Under the pieces are notes generated by a model that was not told where the DNA came from, did not search any database, and was given only the letters and a program-made list of their open reading frames with translations. The position numbers and the translations under genes were made by a program. A stretch of DNA of 33,542 bases from an uncultured bacterium (GTDB lineage Bacteria; Bacteroidota; Bacteroidia; Sphingobacteriales; Sphingobacteriaceae): contig CAJBVG010000182.1 of the NCBI GenBank assembly GCA_903958995.1, positions 1 to 33,542 on the forward strand. The letters run 5' to 3'. This document shows, piece by piece, positions 5,185-33,258 of this stretch; position 1 is the first letter of the stretch, and every line of letters begins with the position of its first letter.

Positions 5185-5197
5185 CGTATAATTTCAC

Positions 5198-5299
5198 ATT
5201 AACGTATTAATATTAACATATTAACCCATTAACATATTAACACATTAACATATTAACACATTAACATATTAACACATTAACATATTAACACATTAAATC
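5198..5299. repeat. 8-nt tandem array ATTAACAY (about 13 units; 16-nt higher-order alternation ATTAACAT/ATTAACAC)
   Basis: Units read directly from 5198. The final unit, attaaatc, contains the sucD stop codon (5293-5295). Confidence 0.95.
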
Positions 5300-6226: not shown

Positions 6227-6314
6227 AAATGCGTAAATGTGCAGATGCGAAAATGCGTAGATTCATTAATTTGCACATTTACGCATTTGCACATTTACGC
6301 ATCTGCACATTTTC
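6227..6314. repeat. Inverted pair of 8-nt tandem arrays (AAATGYGY x 4, spacer, then the reverse-complement word RCRCATTT x 4-5)
   Basis: aaatgcgt|aaatgtgc|agatgcga|aaatgcgt|agattcat|taatttgc|acatttac|gcatttgc|acatttac|gcatctgc|acattttc, in a single 8-nt phase throughout. It occupies the divergent sucD/truA spacer. Confidence 0.9.
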
Positions 6315-6315
6315 A

Positions 6316-6323
6316 TATCTTTG
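6316..6323 (+). promoter_or_regulatory. Candidate Bacteroidota -7 promoter box (TAnnTTTG) for truA
   Basis: TATCTTTG ends 4 nt before the truA ATG (6328), which implies a leaderless or near-leaderless transcript. Confidence 0.4.
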
Positions 6324-8870: not shown

Positions 8871-9205
8871 CCTTAACTTCGCTGCGCTACGTTCGGGGAC
8901 CAATCATTTTACATTTCATAGCAGACTTGCAAAACCCCATCTCCCGATATCTATCGGGATTCGCTACGCTACCCTGCGTGGCGCAGACAGGGTTCGGGGA
9001 CCAATCATTTATCATCAGACTTGCAAAACCCCTCAACTTCGCTGCGCTACGTTCGGGGACCAATCATTTTATTCATTTATTTAAAAGTAGAAAGGGGATA
9101 TTTGAACTATGTTCAAATATCCCCTTTCTACTTTTATTTTATTTTTTTCTGAAGCTATATATAATTTATCGGTCCCCGAACGTAGCGTAGCGAAGTTGAG
9201 GGGCG
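8871..9205. repeat. Composite of GC-rich dispersed-repeat modules (direct copies plus one inverted copy), MITE-like
   Basis: AACTTCGCTGCGCTACGTTCGGGGACCAATCATTTT occurs at 8875-8910 and 9035-9070. CAGACTTGCAAAACCCC occurs at 8922-8938 and 9017-9033. There is a partial GGTTCGGGGACCAATCATTT at 8991-9010. The inverted copy at 9171-9203 matches 9029-9061 at 32/33 positions. Confidence 0.85.
9083..9146. terminator. Bidirectional terminator: perfect 25-bp stem with a 3-nt loop, followed by a T-rich tail
   Basis: AAAAGTAGAAAGGGGATATTTGAAC-tat-GTTCAAATATCCCCTTTCTACTTTT (9083-9135), then ATTTTATTTTTTT. It lies between convergent genes. Confidence 0.8.
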
Positions 9206-10487: not shown

Positions 10488-10528
10488 TCCCGATAGCTAT
10501 CGGGAGCGTAAATCCCGCATAAGCGGGA
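10488..10528. repeat. Two GC-rich mini-palindromes (TCCCGATAGCTATCGGGA; TCCCGC-ataa-GCGGGA)
   Basis: The first (10488-10505) is a near-identical copy of TCCCGATATCTATCGGGA at 8942-8959. Confidence 0.8.
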
Positions 10529-10534
10529 CAAGTA

Positions 10535-10601
10535 GTGCAGATGCGAAGATGTGCAGATGTGCAAATTGAATCTGCACATTTGCATATTTACGCATTTGCA
10601 C
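10535..10601. repeat. Inverted pair of 8-nt tandem arrays (GYGMARAT x 4, tga, ATYTRCRY x 4)
   Basis: gtgcagat|gcgaagat|gtgcagat|gtgcaaat|tga|atctgcac|atttgcat|atttacgc|atttgcac. Same word family as 6227-6314. It ends 6 nt before the stop of the 10608 gene. Confidence 0.9.
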
Positions 10602-10607
10602 ATCTAT

Positions 10608-11093
10608 TTAGCGTAGGCGATCGGCCGATTTCACCAATTCTTCGTCCTTTTTGATGGCTCTGGCGGCTAGGGCGGTTAAAACAACGGCAATACTTGGGAA
10701 TACCACGGCCAAGCCGGTTACAATGTTCATTACTCCTTCGGCATTTACCGTTTTATAGGCAGAAGTAAGCATGGTAGTAATTAATGCGAAAATGAGCATA
10801 ATCATTACTCGTGCTAAGCGTAATTGCTTTTTGCGGTTATTAAATTGAAATACGGTAACCAATAAGCCTAAACCAATGGCTAAAGTCATTACACTTTTGG
10901 CATAATTAGGTTTCGCTAATACATATTCGTTAGTGGTTGCTTCTTTTTCAAATCGACCTTGAATAGTCAATTTTACTTCTTTAATGGTAGCATCCGGTTG
11001 TTTCTCCACGAAAGTATAAATCGGAAAGAAATACATCATCGCTAAAGCTACCGATGCGAGGAATAAGTAGATGGTTTGGATTCTTTGAATCAT
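10608..11093 (-). CDS. DUF4293-like integral membrane protein
   Basis: 161 aa, starting MIQRIQTIYLFLASVALAMMYFFPIY, with four predicted TM helices. Confidence 0.7.
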   Translation of the reverse strand: MIQRIQTIYLFLASVALAMMYFFPIYTFVEKQPDATIKEVKLTIQGRFEKEATTNEYVLAKPNYAKSVMTLAIGLGLLVTVFQFNNRKKQLRLARVMIMLIFALITTMLTSAYKTVNAEGVMNIVTGLAVVFPSIAVVLTALAARAIKKDEELVKSADRLR

Positions 11094-11096
11094 CTT

Positions 11097-11187
11097 GAGT
11101 TATGAGTTATGAATTGTGAGTTGTGAGTTGAATTATGAATTGTAAATTTTAACTCACAACTCATAATTCACAATTTACAATTAGTAT
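11097..11187. repeat. 7-nt phase-locked array (13 units) with inverted arms (GAGTTRT... / ...CTCAYAA)
   Basis: gagttat|gagttat|gaattgt|gagttgt|gagttga|attatga|attgtaa|attttaa|ctcacaa|ctcataa|ttcacaa|tttacaa|ttagtat. It fills the whole spacer between the start at 11093 and the eno stop at 11188. Confidence 0.95.
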
Positions 11188-12482: not shown

Positions 12483-12610
12483 TAAATTTTAAATTGTAAA
12501 TTTTAAATTGTAATTTATTGTATTAACATATTAATCTAAGTTGTAAGTTATTTCATTAACATATTATCCTATTAACATATTAACATATTATCCTATTAAC
12601 ATATTATCCA
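12483..12610. repeat. Compound array: TAAATTK x 5 (7 nt), AAGTTRT x 2, then ATTAACAT/ATTATCCT x 7 (8 nt)
   Basis: 7-nt units run from 12483 to 12517. There is an ATTAACAT|ATTAATCT pair at 12522-12537. 8-nt units run from 12555 to 12610, and the last unit contains the carA stop (12604-12606). Confidence 0.9.
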
Positions 12611-16863: not shown

Positions 16864-17010
16864 AATTAGGAATTAGGAATTAGGAATTAGGAATTTGCAC
16901 TATAGAAAAAGGACTATGGACATCGGACAAGGGACAATGGACAAAGTAAGATATCCAGTCACCAGTCACTAGTCACCAGTTACCGCTAAATAGTCACCAG
17001 TCACCATAAA
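16864..17010. repeat. 21-unit heptamer array in a single phase with drifting words (AATTAGG x 4, then ACWNNGG x 5, then CCAGTCA-type x 7)
   Basis: I read the units one by one from 16864 to 17010 without any phase slip. Confidence 0.95.
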
Positions 17011-17022
17011 TTTGTACATTTG
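17007..17022 (+). promoter_or_regulatory. Two adjacent TAnnTTTG boxes (TAAATTTG, TACATTTG) upstream of the RluA-family gene
   Basis: The second box ends 4 nt before ATG 17027, the same geometry as at truA. Confidence 0.4.
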
Positions 17023-17026
17023 CGCT

Positions 17027-17692
17027 ATGAACATATTCTACGAGGATAATCACCTCATTGCTATAAACAAACCAGCGGGTACTCTTGTGCAGGTGGATAA
17101 TACTGGAGATACATCTTTAGAGATTTTGGTAAAGGATTACATCAAGGTACAATACAACAAACCGGGTGAAGTGTTTTTAGGGGTAATACATCGCATCGAT
17201 CGTCCCGTTAGTGGATTGGTATTGATGGCGAGAACGAGTAAAGCTTTAGAGCGTGTTAACAAATCGTTTAAAGATCGTGAAGTTCAGAAAACCTATTTAG
17301 CAGTAGTTAGAAATAAACCTGCGTTAGAAGAAGGCACACTTGTTCATTGGTTAACAAGAGATACAGTGAAAGGCGTTACCAAAGCACATAACAAAGAAGT
17401 CAACGGTTCCCAACGTGCCGAACTTAGCTATAAATTATTGTCGGAAATAAATGGTTTTTATCTATTAGAAATAAAACCGATAACAGGAAGAACGCATCAA
17501 ATTCGCGTACAACTTTCTAGCATGAATTGCCCCATTGTAGGTGATAATAAATATGGATATCCTAGAGCCAATAAAGATCGTAGCATTTGCTTGCATTCTT
17601 ACAAACTAGCTTTCAACCATCCCGTTACCAAAGAACGCATGGAACTACAAGCGGATTTACCGGAAGATGCTTTTTGGCAGAAATTTAGGTAA
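17027..17692 (+). CDS. RluA-family pseudouridine synthase (no S4 domain)
   Basis: The HRIDRPVSGLVL catalytic-Asp motif and ...GRTHQIRVQL. Start set at the first ATG (17027); the tracked ORF begins at TTG. Confidence 0.9.
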   Translation: MNIFYEDNHLIAINKPAGTLVQVDNTGDTSLEILVKDYIKVQYNKPGEVFLGVIHRIDRPVSGLVLMARTSKALERVNKSFKDREVQKTYLAVVRNKPALEEGTLVHWLTRDTVKGVTKAHNKEVNGSQRAELSYKLLSEINGFYLLEIKPITGRTHQIRVQLSSMNCPIVGDNKYGYPRANKDRSICLHSYKLAFNHPVTKERMELQADLPEDAFWQKFR

Positions 17693-17765
17693 CTGGTGAC
17701 TGGTAGCTGGTAACTGGTAACTGATAAACAAATATTTCGAGTTACGAACTACGAGTTACGAGGTA
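17693..17765. repeat. 7-nt phase-locked array exactly filling a stop-to-stop spacer (CTGGTRA x 5, then TTACGAG-type x 4)
   Basis: ctggtga|ctggtag|ctggtaa|ctggtaa|ctgataa|acaaata|tttcgag|ttacgaa|ctacgag|ttacgag|gta. The first words are the reverse complement of the array upstream of the same gene. Confidence 0.95.
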
Positions 17766-18965
17766 CTACTGAGAGAATTCCGTACTCAACTTAAACCTCA
17801 CAATTCTACCATTCCCTGTATCGCAGATGTATAATGTGCTTCCGAAATAGGCAACAGCAGTTGGTCTGCGGAATTGTTTCGGACCAGAACCTGTACCACC
17901 AAATGAAACGTTAATATTTTTCTTTGATGAATAGCCTGCTGGTGGTGGAACTCCTTCTAAACCGGTTAAGGTAAATAAGTACACCGAATCTTTTGTAGCA
18001 TCGGTTACGAAAATATAATTACTTCCATCGCCTGCAATAGTTATCCCTCTTGGTTCTGTAAACTTATTTGGAGTGTACATAAATCCATCTGCTTTTGTGG
18101 TGTCTTGTCCGGCTAAGCTAGTATTTAATGAATATGATGAACCAAATTCTGAAGAAACAAAGCTGATGTATTGAGTTTTTATTGATGTACTACTCGATAA
18201 AGAAGTGAAAAGAAAATCGCCTCCTTGTTTTACAATATTACTTTGTGGTGCTTTCGCTAAAGTTGAAATGGCAAATGGTGATTTAAAATAATCGGAAATC
18301 AATCCTTGCTCTGTGCTTACACTTACGTTACTTACGAACTTATCGTTTTGGTTAAATACTAAAACTGAATTATCAGGACCGCCAATTTGCGATGAGCTGT
18401 TCGATGGACCAGAACGTGTGATGTAATAACTATTATCGGCCATCATGCTGATTCCATTGATGTGTACAGCAGAATCGGAAGTGGTGAACGATGTTTTAAA
18501 ATAGAAAGGATGAACAACTGTTTTTGAGATGATCGCATTGTTTAATCCGTAACCATTACTCGTAATTAATTTTAAACGATACAAGGCATCGAGTGTATAA
18601 TTCTTACCATTGATGACAGTATCTTTTGTCCCAAGTACTAATAATTCCAAGCTTCTATCCATGGCAATGGCTTTTGCATTTGGAATGCTCTTCTCTCCTA
18701 CTTTTCTGCCCGACTGATCGAATGAAATAACTTTACCTGCATTCTTATCGGCAATGTAAATTAACTCGTCATAACCAATCGTAATGTCGACTGGTGAAGC
18801 AGTAATTTTAATATCAGGAAGAATTGGTACGAATGCGATTGGTTTTTCATCGTAGTTTGGAACGTCGATGAAACCTAAATTAGTTTTATCACCAAATGGT
18901 TTTTCACAAGAGGATAATACACTTGATAGAATAACTAATCCGAATAAATATTTTCTAATCATCAT
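17766..18965 (-). CDS. Lipoprotein with C-terminal NHL-like beta-propeller repeats
   Basis: Lipobox LSSVLSSC. Repeats PRGITIAGDGSNYIFVTDATKDSVYLF and RPTAVAYFGSTLYICDTGNGRIVRF. The start lies 1 nt from the upstream stop codon. Confidence 0.75.
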   Translation of the reverse strand: MMIRKYLFGLVILSSVLSSCEKPFGDKTNLGFIDVPNYDEKPIAFVPILPDIKITASPVDITIGYDELIYIADKNAGKVISFDQSGRKVGEKSIPNAKAIAMDRSLELLVLGTKDTVINGKNYTLDALYRLKLITSNGYGLNNAIISKTVVHPFYFKTSFTTSDSAVHINGISMMADNSYYITRSGPSNSSSQIGGPDNSVLVFNQNDKFVSNVSVSTEQGLISDYFKSPFAISTLAKAPQSNIVKQGGDFLFTSLSSSTSIKTQYISFVSSEFGSSYSLNTSLAGQDTTKADGFMYTPNKFTEPRGITIAGDGSNYIFVTDATKDSVYLFTLTGLEGVPPPAGYSSKKNINVSFGGTGSGPKQFRRPTAVAYFGSTLYICDTGNGRIVRFKLSTEFSQ

Positions 18966-19981: not shown

Positions 19982-20098
19982 TGTATTAAGTACAATGTAT
20001 TATGTATTATGTATTATTATTTTTCATTGTACATTGTACTTAATACATTGTACAGAACATTAACATATTATCCCATTAACATATTAACATATTAATTA
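19982..20098. repeat. Compound array: 7-nt words (TGTATTA x 4 / ACATTGT x 3, partly inverted), then 8-nt ATTAACAT/ATTATCCC x 5
   Basis: 7-nt units run from 19982 to 20058 and 8-nt units from 20059 to 20098. The last unit, attaatta, contains the stop codon of the 20096 gene. GTACAATGTATTA (19990-20002) pairs with TAATACATTGTAC (20041-20053). Confidence 0.9.
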
Positions 20099-22924: not shown

Positions 22925-22988
22925 TCTCTGTGTCTCTGTGCCTCTGTGATTAGGAATACTTAAACACAGAGACACAATGACACAGTTT
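22925..22988. repeat. Inverted pair of 8-nt arrays (YCTCTGTG x 3, 16-nt spacer, CACARNNN x 3)
   Basis: tctctgtg|tctctgtg|cctctgtg|attaggaatacttaaa|cacagaga|cacaatga|cacagttt. The spacer is exactly two units long, so phase is kept. TGTGTCTCTGTG pairs with CACAGAGACACA. Confidence 0.9.
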
Positions 22989-23423: not shown

Positions 23424-23471
23424 CCGGTCCCTGAGCCCTGCCCGCGCAGGCGGGGGAGCCGAAGGGCCCGG
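23424..23471. repeat. GC-rich hairpin (family C) carrying an internal 18-nt GC mini-hairpin
   Basis: CCGGTCCCTGAGC[CCTGCCCGCGCAGGCGGG]GGAGCCGAAGGGCCCGG. Without the bracketed part it matches GGTCCCTGAGCGGAGCCGAAGGGACC at 25970-25995. It ends 2 nt from the stop codon at 23474. Confidence 0.85.
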
Positions 23472-25969: not shown

Positions 25970-25995
25970 GGTCCCTGAGCGGAGCCGAAGGGACC
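25970..25995. repeat. GC-rich hairpin, family C (GGTCCCT-gagcggagccga-AGGGACC)
   Basis: 7-bp stem, 5 nt 3' of the stop at 26001. Related to 23424-23471. Confidence 0.8.
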
Positions 25996-26000
25996 TATTA

Positions 26001-28112
26001 CTATTTCGTCACTACAAAACGTCCATTATTCAACACACCTGCAGAAGCAGAAGAAATGCTGTAAATGTATGTTCCTTGTGATAAAGAAGAGATATCAATT
26101 TTAACTGTTCCTGTAGTTTCAGTTAATGTTGTAGTATTTACAACACGACCGAAAATATCATAAACAGTAAGCATTAAATCTGCAGAATTAACTGGCATGA
26201 TGTAATCTAAGTTCAAATTAGTAGTTGCAGGGTTTGGATAAACAACTGCTTTACCTTTATTAACGAATGATGATGTAATACCTAAAGCGGTATAAGTATC
26301 AAAATCATTATTGTTTCTTGGTAATAATTTCAAGTTACTGAATGAGTAAGTCATGATACCAGTTAACGAATTCATGCGATCACCTTTTTTAACAACGATG
26401 ATATCGATACCTGCATTTGGTGTCCATGAGCTATCATTCACATAAGAAACATTTAATGAAGAGAATGAAGTACTAGTTTGACGACCAGCAATGACACGGC
26501 AACCAGCACCAGCATCAGTAGTATCTTTTCCTACACGGTATTCAGCGAAATTACTTGGATCATCAGCATTTTGATTGATAATATATAAACCATTTGTTGG
26601 CATAAATTTAACAACCATACCTTCATAAGGCTCAGAACCTGTTGGGCTTTGGAAACGGAATGAATCTGCTTCAACTACTACTGGAGTAATTACACCTGAT
26701 CCATTTTTAGTAACTGAAGTAACACTTTCTAAACGTGTTAATCCGAAGTATTCTTTTACAGTACCAGTGATGGTAACTTTTTCGCCTGTTAATAATGTAG
26801 ATAAACCAGTTCCATTTGCTACGAAAATACCAGCATATGTACCTTGGTTTTCTTGTTGAATGTGAACATAACCTAAATCAGAAACTGAAGATGTAACCAC
26901 ACCAGTAACTGTTACTGCTTGATCAACAAATCCTGAGTTACCAGATTTGAATGGAGAATATTGAACATCATAAATAGTTAAACCATTATTTCTAACTACA
27001 TAGAATTTTGGATCTTCTGCAGGAACATTAGGAATACGACTAGTTAAATTTGCAGGAGATGCATCTTTAGCCATGATGTAATATTTCACTAAAGAACCAT
27101 CTGCTTGAGCAGCGATATTAGCTGTATATAAATTTCCATTTGCACTCATTGGAACAGCAATGTAACTATTGCTAGTTGCTCCAACAGCATAATATAATAC
27201 AGCAGTATCAACACCTTCTTGATCGGTGATGTTAGCTGAAATCATTACTGAGTTAGTGTTATTAGGCACAACGAAATTTCTTGTAATACCTGAAATTGAA
27301 GGTGCAGAAGCTCCCCAAACTACATCAGCAGGTTTAATAGGATGTAACTCATAACCTCTATTATTTTTAGAGTGTAATAAAACACCTTTGATAGAGTTGA
27401 TAAAGTCACCTACTACAGGAGGTACAAATGTTCCACCTGTTGCTGGTAAACGGAATGATGAGAAACGATCTGAAATATTCATTTTGTTTCCTGAAGCATC
27501 AATTACGTTGAAACTTACACGAGCACCATTAGAGAAATAATCAACTGAAGAAACTGTTAAATTACGTAGTTCTACATATTGACCTTCATACTGCTCACCA
27601 GTAGTAAGGATGTTATTTCTATTGATGTCGTTTAATTCTGCAGCAGTAACTAATTTTGCTTTAACAGTAATTCCACCACCTAATAATATAATAGGTGTAG
27701 CTGGATTTGTATTGTTAGGTACGAATTCAGTTTCACCTTGGAATTCTTCCACGTGACCAGTAATTTCTACAGAGTCACCTTCTACAAGTGATAAGATACC
27801 TGTACCACCATCACCCGGAGTTGTAGAACCTGGGAATGGTTGATAAACGTCAATTCCTGAGAAAGCCGAACCATCATTGGTTTGAATCCAAATTTGTTTA
27901 CCACCAACAATAGTAGATAAACCAGCATCCATAATTACAACACCACGAATACGAATAGTATCTGTAATGGCAAATGAAGACGCATCATTTCCTGCCGCTA
28001 AATCTTGTTGCGACACCGTTTGTACTTCTGTGATAGTTTTTAAAGGATATTGTGCATTTGCAGCAATAGCCATCACTAAGAAGCATGCTAATGAAAGTAA
28101 TTTTTTGTTCAT
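26001..28112 (-). CDS. Secreted T9SS substrate with duplicated OB-fold-like modules of the type found N-terminal to ExeM/NucH extracellular nucleases
   Basis: Signal peptide ...AIAANAQ. Module 1 is ITEVQ...IRIRGVVI...IWIQTNDG..SGIDVY...LVEGDSVEITGHVEEFQGETEF. Module 2 is IYDVQYS...VTVTGVVTS...VHIQQEN..AGIFVAN...LLTGEKVTITGTVKEYFGLTRL. T9SS tail VVYPNPATTNLNL...GTYIYSI. Confidence 0.65.
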   Translation of the reverse strand: MNKKLLSLACFLVMAIAANAQYPLKTITEVQTVSQQDLAAGNDASSFAITDTIRIRGVVIMDAGLSTIVGGKQIWIQTNDGSAFSGIDVYQPFPGSTTPGDGGTGILSLVEGDSVEITGHVEEFQGETEFVPNNTNPATPIILLGGGITVKAKLVTAAELNDINRNNILTTGEQYEGQYVELRNLTVSSVDYFSNGARVSFNVIDASGNKMNISDRFSSFRLPATGGTFVPPVVGDFINSIKGVLLHSKNNRGYELHPIKPADVVWGASAPSISGITRNFVVPNNTNSVMISANITDQEGVDTAVLYYAVGATSNSYIAVPMSANGNLYTANIAAQADGSLVKYYIMAKDASPANLTSRIPNVPAEDPKFYVVRNNGLTIYDVQYSPFKSGNSGFVDQAVTVTGVVTSSVSDLGYVHIQQENQGTYAGIFVANGTGLSTLLTGEKVTITGTVKEYFGLTRLESVTSVTKNGSGVITPVVVEADSFRFQSPTGSEPYEGMVVKFMPTNGLYIINQNADDPSNFAEYRVGKDTTDAGAGCRVIAGRQTSTSFSSLNVSYVNDSSWTPNAGIDIIVVKKGDRMNSLTGIMTYSFSNLKLLPRNNNDFDTYTALGITSSFVNKGKAVVYPNPATTNLNLDYIMPVNSADLMLTVYDIFGRVVNTTTLTETTGTVKIDISSLSQGTYIYSISSASAGVLNNGRFVVTK

Positions 28113-28151
28113 TTTATTTTTGTTTGTTTTTCTTTTGTTCGTTTTTTTTTC

Positions 28152-28276
28152 GTCGGAGTGTCCCTGTCTGCAACAGGCAGGCTCGCTTCGACATTAATCT
28201 TGTGTTCGTCGAAGCGTCCTCGCTTCGACATTAATTCATATAATCTGTCGGAGTGTCCTCACTCCGACGAACGGTT
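28152..28276. repeat. Cluster of three family-B REP-like hairpins
   Basis: The first is GTCGGAGTG..[CCTGTCTGCAACAGGCAGG]..CTCGCTTCGAC (28152-28192). The second is GTCGAAGCG-tcct-CGCTTCGAC (28208-28229, an inverted copy of 947-968). The third is GTCGGAGTG-tcct-CACTCCGAC + GAACGGTT (28247-28276). The first two are each followed by ATTAAT. Confidence 0.85.
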
Positions 28277-33053: not shown

Positions 33054-33133
33054 ATAATAATATGTTAATGGGATAATATGTTAATGTGTTAATGGGATAA
33101 TATGTTAATGTGCCAATGAGCTAATGTGCTAAT
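33054..33133. repeat. 8-nt array NNNNTAAT x 10 (ATGTTAAT/GGGATAAT), the reverse complement of the ATTAACAT/ATTATCCC family
   Basis: ataataat|atgttaat|gggataat|atgttaat|gtgttaat|gggataat|atgttaat|gtgccaat|gagctaat|gtgctaat. Confidence 0.95.
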
Positions 33134-33258
33134 GCTTGATTTGGTGAAAAGGATGTTTAAATGGGATGATAGGCAAGTATTTAAGTATGATTTGAGTCAT
33201 AAACAAACCAATCACATTATTTTCAACTTTGTGTCATCAAACAAAACAATAACAAATT

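Follow-up and report, generated by a model that had tools for sequence, protein, structure and literature searches.

In a 33,542-nt stretch of DNA from an uncultured bacterium of the Sphingobacteriaceae (contig CAJBVG010000182.1; "the window" below means this whole stretch), several spacers between genes are filled by a tandem array of a 7- or 8-nt word followed by an array of its reverse complement, an arrangement that we call a mirror array. Mirror arrays have a nearly invariant polarity, lie mostly between co-directional genes and recur in the same spacers of related species with their words replaced. They are best read as a special form of the intergenic short-word arrays that fill the unconstrained DNA of this Bacteroidota lineage. 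As to their origin, we consider it about an even chance that slippage and strand-switch copying make the mirror arrays and that a translational filter fixes their polarity. Direct short-word arrays are already known; the reverse-complement pairing, the polarity and the positional persistence with word replacement are what we believe to be new, and we found in the literature no earlier description of paired, polar, hairpin-forming tandem arrays.

Mirror arrays in the window and elsewhere

A preliminary description of the same DNA, made from its letters alone, had reported four spacers with 7- or 8-mer word arrays followed by reverse-complement arrays, and both direct reading and Tandem Repeats Finder (TRF) bear it out (arrays 1 to 4, Table 1). 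On the + strand, 10535-10601 reads GTGCAGAT GCGAAGAT GTGCAGAT GTGCAAAT, centre TGA (10567-10569), then ATCTGCAC ATTTGCAT ATTTACGC ATTTGCAC, which is the four plus four octamers around a 3-nt centre that had been described. Array 2 (6227-6314) has the word family of array 1 in about 4.5 + 5.5 units. TRF called each arm separately as an array of period 7 or 8; its arrays, of 3-12.6 copies each, lie in every arm and in most spacers of the window. Read on the coding (-) strand, 10535-10566 is the C-rich arm, distal to the DUF4293 stop codon (10608-10610), and the arm that is C-rich in the + strand reading stops 6 nt short of that codon. The stretch 11096-11144 is likewise, on the coding (-) strand, the G-poor arm, which reaches to 2 nt from the DUF4293 start codon; the other arm of array 3 is polymorphic in copy number among strains.

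The four spacers had been presented as special cases. They are instead one form of arrays that are genome-wide, and a fifth mirror array (19982-20054), a weak sixth (17688-17766) and arms separated by a gene had been overlooked. The whole of rluA lies between inverted arms, with CCAGTCA units before the gene and TGACTGG units after it; enolase also separates two such arms (11151-11185 and 12483-12513), with CAATTTA units before the gene and TAAATTG-type units after it. Nearly every spacer of the window carries arrays of 7- or 8-nt words, and in eight related loci short-word arrays occupy 14.2% of the intergenic bases vs 0.30% of the coding ones. Arrays of ATGTTAAT stand 3' of the stop codons of sucD, carA and the TonB receptor gene, and further arrays are built of GCGAATTA, CGAATTTG, AATTCTA, AATTAGG, CCAGTCA, GGTAACT and CGAGTTA. 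The array borders fall at stop and start codons, and no near-identical copies of a mirror array were found within the window.

In its coding-strand reading ATGTTAAT is found at 5198-5296, 12555-12606, 20059-20095 and 33058-33134, after three stop codons in phase with TAA; it is also present inverted in a divergent spacer.

The arrays belong with the long simple sequence repeats of Mrazek et al. (2007, summarised in PMC4679880): they are head-to-tail runs, longer than chance, of a unit of 5-11 nt (here 7-8 nt), they lie almost exclusively between genes, a bias that marks units whose length is not a multiple of 3, they often abut start or stop codons, and their copy number varies between close strains. 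Heptamer arrays near start codons have been described in Beggiatoaceae, cyanobacteria and five Bacteroidetes, with slippage proposed as their cause (PMC4679880); in Nostoc their function is still called speculative in the literature. The cyanobacterial heptamers go by the name of STRR. The TAACTGA arrays of the published groups have a counterpart in the TAACTGG/TAACTGA units that the window carries after rluA. The difference is that the published repeats, as summarised there, are direct arrays, whereas here an array is joined to its reverse complement, with a fixed polarity and a position kept across species; MacGregor recorded one inverted pair among 170 array sets (PMC4679880).

For a wider survey we used a detector of inverted repeats in which both arms are periodic. 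It found 12 mirror arrays in 152 kb of the clade (79 per Mb) and 10 in 2.14 Mb from 146 other Bacteroidota loci (4.7 per Mb). Six of these ten belong to two Spirosoma genomes, those of S. telluris (HMF3257) and S. oryzae (DSM 28354), where mirror arrays fill the spacers of the co-directional eno-ftsB-ptp-gpmI cluster and the words of the eno-ftsB and ptp-gpmI spacers are unrelated between the two species. Since Spirosoma thus repeats the pattern of the clade (described below), the keeping of the layout with replacement of the word has been seen twice, independently. Mirror arrays make up about a third of the array-bearing co-directional spacers.

Polarity and position

With the first arm read 5' to 3' (on either strand), G exceeds C in 19 mirror arrays, C exceeds G in one and two are ties; the polarity is therefore fixed in 19 of the 20 informative cases. 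Ordinary intergenic inverted repeats give 56:34 by the same measure. Eighteen of the 21 intergenic mirror arrays lie between co-directional genes, and 13 of the 18 reach within about 25 nt of both the stop codon and the next start codon. Two are in divergent spacers (6227 in the window and 14942 in the related locus L101) and one is in a convergent spacer, the class in which ordinary inverted repeats are commonest (46/143).

The two arms also differ in composition when read on the sense strand: 26% G and 10% C in the stop-proximal arm, which holds 11.1 ATG/GTG/TTG and 8.4 stop triplets per 100 nt, vs 9% G, 25% C and 38% A in the start-proximal arm, with 1.0 start-like triplets per 100 nt. Stop-proximal arrays often begin in phase with the stop codon (TAACTGG, TAATGTGT, TAAATTG, TAGCTCG).

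Related species: layout kept, word replaced

Syntenic loci of relatives (numbered with the letter L) were reached through protein homologues at 63-89% identity. An enolase-based search of species-representative contigs gave a nearest match at 80% identity, with synteny too low for use (among species representatives, identity to the window enolase reaches no more than 80%, in Pedobacter quisquiliarum), and a DUF4293-based search of metagenome contigs gave only three close loci. The window encodes type IX secretion (T9SS) tail domains, and its organism recurs in metagenome assemblies. By enolase identity the order is ((window,(L097,L098)),L101),L185 with the outgroup (L186,L188).

The spacer between enolase and DUF4293 contains a word array and its complement in all loci compared except L188, which has no array and only 10 nt between the genes. 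The words are AATTGTG / CACAATT in the window, AATTGTA / TACAATT in L101, TCCTTAG / CTAAGGA in L097, GTACTGA / TCAGTAC in L186, AATTGTR / ACAATTC in L184, and AATTATG / CATAATT in both L098 and L185. A 23S_rRNA_IVP gene lies between the arms in L184 and L185; in L098 it lies just downstream of a compact mirror array and is followed by further C-rich arrays. In the spacer after DUF4293 the period itself switches, from octamers in the window to heptamers (TAGCTCG / CGAGCTA) in L101. The divergent truA-sucD spacer has GTGCAAAT / ATTTGCAC in the window vs TGGTGAC / GTCACCA in L101, and direct arrays only in L098; its promoter-proximal flanks are conserved in the window, L097, L098 and L101. The CGAAGATC array that L097 has there is ambiguous as a mirror array, since its word contains the palindrome TTCGAA, and it was set aside.

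L097 and L098 share 98% enolase identity, yet their spacers are unrelated, so the replacement of a spacer appears to be wholesale and not gradual. Within one genome, neighbouring spacers use one word family (the AATTGTA type on both sides of enolase in the window and in L101, the AATTATG type in L098 and L185), which points to exchange between nearby arrays.

The preliminary description had proposed that the two arms evolve in concert, and this is supported for words but not for units. In more distant relatives the word is replaced in both arms, so that both carry new words, complementary to each other. Arms held in register, whether by hairpin-templated copying or by selection, would be expected to show mirrored variant units; permuting the order of units within one arm gives a complementarity as high as that observed (18 arrays, Fisher combined p = 0.43). 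The copy numbers of the arms are usually unequal (4+10 in the close locus L104, 7+5 at 11096, 9+5 in L097), and the sole length polymorphism met with among near-identical strains (array 3, described below) lengthens one arm and the loop, not both arms. The unmirrored order of units, together with the absence of a sense-strand bias (see Folding), implies that the arms correspond by word family and not base by base.

Close strains

The 10535 spacer is unchanged in all eight contigs encoding an identical DUF4293 protein; the 22925 spacer is unchanged in seven contigs, four of them about 2.7% divergent from the window, and the 6227 spacer in one contig that is 99.1% identical. Two alleles occur at 11096-11185. 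The longer differs by one more AATTGTG unit in a single arm and one more AAAATTT in the loop, while the opposite arm stays as it is, and its predicted fold is more stable (-37.8 kcal/mol, against -26.4 for the shorter allele). After sucD, the window carries 12 units of ATGTTAAT and the 99%-identical contig L089 about 17. The array that follows DUF4293 in L104, a locus with 98% protein identity, counts 4 + about 10 units, and some of its unit variants are different. At about 790-950 of the strain-level scaffold L081 an extra complete mirror module, (AATTGTA)x4 / (ATTTACA)x4, stands beside the window-type one, with 10 N joining the two; this is either a fresh inverted copy made from the outer arm units or an artefact of assembly.

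Folding

The long imperfect hairpins that had been proposed for the four spacers are supported by the comparison with shuffled controls, with RNA as well as DNA parameters. The RNA minimum free energy is -26 to -45.5 kcal/mol (z from -5.2 to -9.1, both strands), and none of 200 shuffles is as good for any of the four; with DNA parameters the z values of the mirror arrays are -5.0 to -6.2. Four spacers of the window with non-palindromic arrays, used as a control, fold at z of +0.07 to +0.77, and we therefore ascribe the fold to the inverted arrangement and not to low complexity. One direct array, ATGTTAAT at 5195-5296, does fold strongly as RNA (z -8.4), since the word becomes self-complementary once G.U pairs are counted. 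The predicted stems are imperfect, AT-rich and 20-35 bp long, a length that would be compatible with an RNase III processing stem. An Rfam scan of the whole window gave no match at the gathering score.

The sense strand folds better in 10 mirror arrays and the antisense strand in 7, so there is no bias, and the comparison was dropped as a sign of selection at the RNA level; the advantage of the antisense strand amounts to 5-12 kcal/mol at 10535 and 11096. A selected sense RNA stem should be expected to have G.U mismatches on the sense strand, and no excess of G.U over A.C was found there in the mirror arrays.

Terminators and transcription units

Long stable stems located directly 3' of stop codons suggest terminators, either intrinsic or bidirectional, of an unusual kind that needs no U-tract, and array 1 does stand at the end of a probable carA-eno-DUF4293 unit. 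The preliminary description had denied that these are classical intrinsic terminators, and we agree: the terminator scan flagged none of the four arrays, and no T-run follows any arm. The same scan flagged canonical sites with a hairpin and a T-run, some of them in the same spacers: 10505-10488, 5185-5164 (after the sucD array), 9086-9132 (on both strands) and 13753-13726. The arrays resemble an intrinsic terminator in being a stem-loop after a stop codon, but they are AT-rich and imperfect, and the next start codon mostly follows directly (in the 13 of 18 co-directional cases noted above). They lie between co-directional genes without a strict TAnnTTTG box before the next gene, and two lie in divergent spacers, while ordinary inverted repeats concentrate in convergent ones. 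We consider termination a very unlikely role for them.

Unlike the mirror arrays, the inverted repeat at 9082-9136, which separates convergent genes, is a textbook bidirectional terminator: a perfect 26-bp repeat around a 3-nt loop, flanked by a T-run on either side.

A sigma-70 promoter scan returned 66 sites with 66.5 expected, which is uninformative for Bacteroidota, and it was replaced by a search for TAnnTTTG. Strict -7 boxes of this form were found upstream of carA, a T9SS gene and truA, and none was found upstream of enolase, DUF4293 or the TonB receptor gene. From this we infer that carA, eno and DUF4293 probably form a single transcription unit, which would contain array 3 internally and array 1 in its 3' untranslated region. 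The truA box, TATCTTTG at 6316-6323, is conserved in L097, L098 and L101 and starts only 12 nt before the ATG, which suggests a leaderless or near-leaderless truA mRNA. Gene callers start truA at TTG 6190, inside the array (292 vs 246 aa).

Table 1. Coordinates of the mirror arrays and of other features in the window
Feature	Position	Strand	Description
Array 1, G-rich arm (+ strand reading)	10535..10566		4 octamers GTGCAGAT/GCGAAGAT/GTGCAAAT
Array 1, C-rich arm	10570..10601		4 octamers ATCTGCAC/ATTTGCAT/ATTTACGC
Array 2, G-rich arm	6227..6262		ATGCGTAA ATGTGCAG ATGCGAAA ATGCGTAG; divergent sucD<->truA spacer
Array 2, C-rich arm	6269..6314		ATTTGCAC ATTTACGC x2, ATCTGCAC; ends at conserved truA -7 box
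Array 3, G-rich arm	11096..11144		7 heptamers TGAGTTA/TGAATTG/TGAGTTG
Array 3, C-rich arm	11151..11185		about 5 units: AACTCAC AACTCAT AATTCAC AATTTAC; 2 nt before enolase stop codon
Array 4, first arm	22925..22948		3 octamers TCTCTGTG
Array 4, second arm	22965..22988		CACAGAGA CACAATGA CACAG, after 16-nt loop; 5 nt before PDDEXK_3 stop codon
Fifth mirror array	19982..20054		TGTATTA/GTACAAT heptamers + complement; between TonB receptor stop and PorV start; z -5.2
Weak sixth mirror array	17688..17766		convergent spacer; GGTAACT/GGTGACT array then CGAGTTA array, 78% complementary
CCAGTCA array	16955..17006		upstream of rluA; reverse complement of the 17688-17727 array downstream of rluA
TAAATTG array	12483..12513		upstream of enolase; reverse complement of AATTTAC units at 11165-11185 downstream of enolase
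Canonical-type terminator hairpin	10488..10505	-	TCCCGATAGCTATCGGGA then TGTATATTTT; 30 nt downstream of array 1 on coding strand; REP-like
IS200-like Y1 transposase, 184 aa	71..625	-	PF01797, E 3e-6

Origin of the mirror arrays

We propose the following course of events. Replication slippage would add and remove whole units in each arm independently; the unit-number polymorphisms between close strains show such gain and loss. The second arm would come from strand-switch (fold-back) copying of an existing array, or from exchange between nearby arrays, and this would be the reason why the arms share the word and not the order of units. Whole arrays may then be replaced quickly. Finally, a filter, suggested by the composition of the arms and by the published rules of translation in Bacteroidia, would let only one polarity survive: the arm beside the downstream start codon would have to be G-poor, A/C-rich and free of ATG/GTG/TTG, with its G/T-rich, stop-rich complement beside the upstream stop codon. 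In Bacteroidia, translation starts without Shine-Dalgarno pairing, initiation regions tend to be A-rich and unstructured, and AUG is depleted near start codons (PMC6847099), so that a G-rich, ATG-rich array next to a start should be harmful and its G-poor complement harmless. Such a filter accounts for the polarity wherever a start codon adjoins the array. As a consequence, most copies lie within co-directional clusters whose genes are probably co-transcribed; in the transcript they would form imperfect stems of 20-35 bp that bring the stop and start codons together, and they are not what terminates these units. A function of the mirror arrays as mRNA stems is unproven.

The copying step has relatives among known replication errors. 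Quasipalindrome template-switch mutagenesis, in which one arm of an inverted repeat is copied from the other, has reportedly been described by Ripley and by Lovett and co-workers, and switching between the leading and lagging strands at the replication fork is a known error that creates inverted duplications. Both resemble the proposed step in that one arm is templated on the other or an inverted duplication is made. To our knowledge, the descriptions of template switching concern single events at short quasipalindromes, or large copy-number variants, and not a steady source of tandem-periodic palindromes.

Several points weigh against this explanation. In 20 kb of L101 there are three mirror arrays, and all of them occupy the same three spacers as in the window, out of about seven comparable ones, for which chance gives about 1/35; such recurrence across species could reflect selection for the hairpin. 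Three of the four spacers are identical where the strains differ by 0.1-2.7% elsewhere and are thus not hypervariable on the timescale of strains. No strand-switch event was caught directly, the sole candidate being that of L081, which is broken by the 10-N scaffold gap and may be a misassembly. The filter covers the polarity only where a start codon adjoins, leaving the G/T-richness of the stop-proximal arms unexplained, and our explanation gives no cause for array-making in this lineage.

The main rival is that the hairpin is the function, i.e., that the mirror arrays are selected RNA stems inside operons. A terminating ribosome would melt the base of the stem and free the start region, a translational coupling by ribosome-assisted unfolding such as is established in E. 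coli (PMC4538824); in a variant of this proposal the 20-35-bp stem would be an RNase III processing site or a barrier to decay. The geometry suits such coupling, with arms starting at or beside the stop codon and ending at or beside the start codon: at 11680-11749 of L024 the stop UAA pairs with the start UUG, and in L186 and L101 the stop codon pairs with the bases immediately before the AUG. The layout kept in two distant lineages while words are replaced, and the better folding of the longer 11096-11185 allele, agree with it as well, and the 10 nt between enolase and DUF4293 in the L188 outgroup would fit an ancestrally coupled pair. However, such an RNA role cannot apply to the mirror arrays that lie in divergent promoter spacers or to the one in a convergent spacer; there is neither the G.U excess nor the sense-strand energy bias, and the units do not stand in an order that improves pairing. 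In a phylum that relies on unstructured leaders, translation should be inhibited by a stable stem across the initiation region (PMC6847099), and coupling would be better served by simple deletion of the spacer. We regard the selected stem as a real but rather unlikely possibility.

It is tempting to go further and to propose a sequence-free RNA device of the Shine-Dalgarno-less Bacteroidota, with the stop and start codons at the foot of the stem, serving coupling or RNase III processing, renewed with other words each time it decays, and doubling as a docking stem for selfish genes of the IVP type, as in the intervening sequences of 23S rRNA. This combined proposal we hold to be a little less likely still.

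In the intervening sequences of 23S rRNA, the loop of a long stem carries an IVP open reading frame (PF05635). L184, L185 and L098 show the same geometry of an IVP gene in a stem, here with array arms and between protein-coding genes and not in rRNA. Genes for 23S_rRNA_IVP (PF05635) lying between a G-rich array and its C-rich complement are found at 1244-1606 of L184, 9568-9930 of L185, 9637-9891 and 18918-19286 of L098, and 11957-12319 of L101; the L098 copy in the enolase spacer is N-terminally truncated.

One may accordingly ask if the mirror arrays are footprints or landing pads of small selfish cassettes (23S_rRNA_IVP, PDDEXK_3), an empty array being what is left after the loss of a cassette or what attracts its insertion. 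The IVP gene does lie between AATTRTG and CAYAATT arms in the enolase-DUF4293 spacer of L184 and L185 (that of L098 between the compact mirror array and the further C-rich arrays), the second IVP gene of L098 is flanked by (GGTAGCT)x13 upstream and (AGCTACC)x11 downstream, and the PDDEXK_3 gene ends 5 nt from array 4. The lineage of the window may plausibly have lost the gene, given that the IVPs of L184, L185 and L098 are orthologues (64-72% identity) and that one of them, in L098, is truncated. The words, though, vary by site, so no recognition sequence is shared, and neither IVP nor PDDEXK_3 proteins are known as recombinases. In Spirosoma the arrays stand between housekeeping genes without any such cassette, the mirror array of L186 has another word and no IVP gene, and the housekeeping genes enolase and rluA are flanked by inverted arrays in the same way. 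We find the cassette explanation doubtful.

We give hardly any weight to the last proposal, that the words are binding sites, in both orientations, of a sequence-specific DNA- or RNA-binding protein, or are elements of the REP/REPIN type moved by the IS200-like transposase encoded at 71-625. Some words do recur (GTGCAAAT at 6227 and 10535, ATGTTAAT at four sites), a RAYT-like gene with its own flanking hairpins is present, and the arrays resemble REP, BIME and REPIN elements in being intergenic, hairpin-forming, often inside operons and of alternating orientation. But REPs are a conserved family copied by an enzyme, and mirror arrays are site-specific, fast-changing, AT-rich words with an internal tandem period. 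Instead of one dispersed conserved palindrome there are words that differ between spacers and between orthologous spacers, at a given spacer even between close relatives, with the period switching between 7 and 8. The Y1_Tnp gene is flanked by a different, GC-rich hairpin family (CGACGCGATTTATCGCGTCG) and not by the same element, and Rfam gave no match. Words are shared by 7.3% of array pairs within genomes vs 5.2% between them, which we do not take as higher; it was unconvincing as a sign of intragenomic spread.

Neighbouring elements

The Y1 transposase gene is flanked by inverted CGACGCGATTTATCGCGTCG hairpins (48-67, 724-841), one copy downstream and three upstream, the latter in a perfect 43-nt x2.7 tandem; gene and hairpins together resemble a RAYT and the REP elements that belong to it. 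The repeat at 724-841 (43 nt x2.7) was also considered as CRISPR-like and rejected, being a tandem of REP hairpins beside the transposase gene.

At least three families of small GC-rich hairpins are present in the AT-rich spacers: GGTCCCTGAGC..GCCGAAGGGAC (23426-23468, 25970-25994), TCGTCGAAGCG..CGCTTCGACA (945-970, 28184-28230) and TCCCGATAGCTATCGGGA (10488-10505, 8942-8959, 10513-10528). The first of these also occurs in L097 and L101. The TCCCGATAGCTATCGGGA hairpin appears to be mobile, since it is inside one arm of the mirror array in L104 and after the array in the window.

In the window rluA (17012-17692) is flanked by the inverted heptamer arrays 16955-17006 / 17688-17727. In L101 the gene (1892-2557) has no arrays, and its orientation is opposite to that of its neighbours. 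An inversion or relocation of rluA through the flanking arrays would fit these observations but is unproven.

A 50-nt T-rich tract at 28101-28153 (TTTTTTGTTCGTTTT x3.3) lies immediately 5' (+ strand) of the start-codon end (28112) of a gene of 703 aa on the - strand and overlaps it by about 12 nt; read on the coding strand, the tract forms an A-rich leader.

Significance

Intergenic arrays of 7- and 8-mers have been noted for decades in cyanobacteria, Beggiatoaceae and some Bacteroidetes, and they have no accepted explanation. We believe that the frequent reverse-complement pairing, the near-invariant polarity, the co-directional placement and the persistence in the same spacer despite replacement of the sequence now make the problem testable. 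Transcript mapping, reporter swaps and mutation accumulation are feasible, since two cultured Spirosoma species carry mirror arrays between housekeeping genes. On the practical side, gene callers extend open reading frames into the arrays, as with truA, and metagenome assemblies break or gap there, as in L081. If the mirror arrays are purely mutational, they report an unusual lineage-specific regime of slippage and strand switching; if selection maintains them, they would be an operon element defined by structure alone, in a phylum whose translation starts without Shine-Dalgarno pairing.

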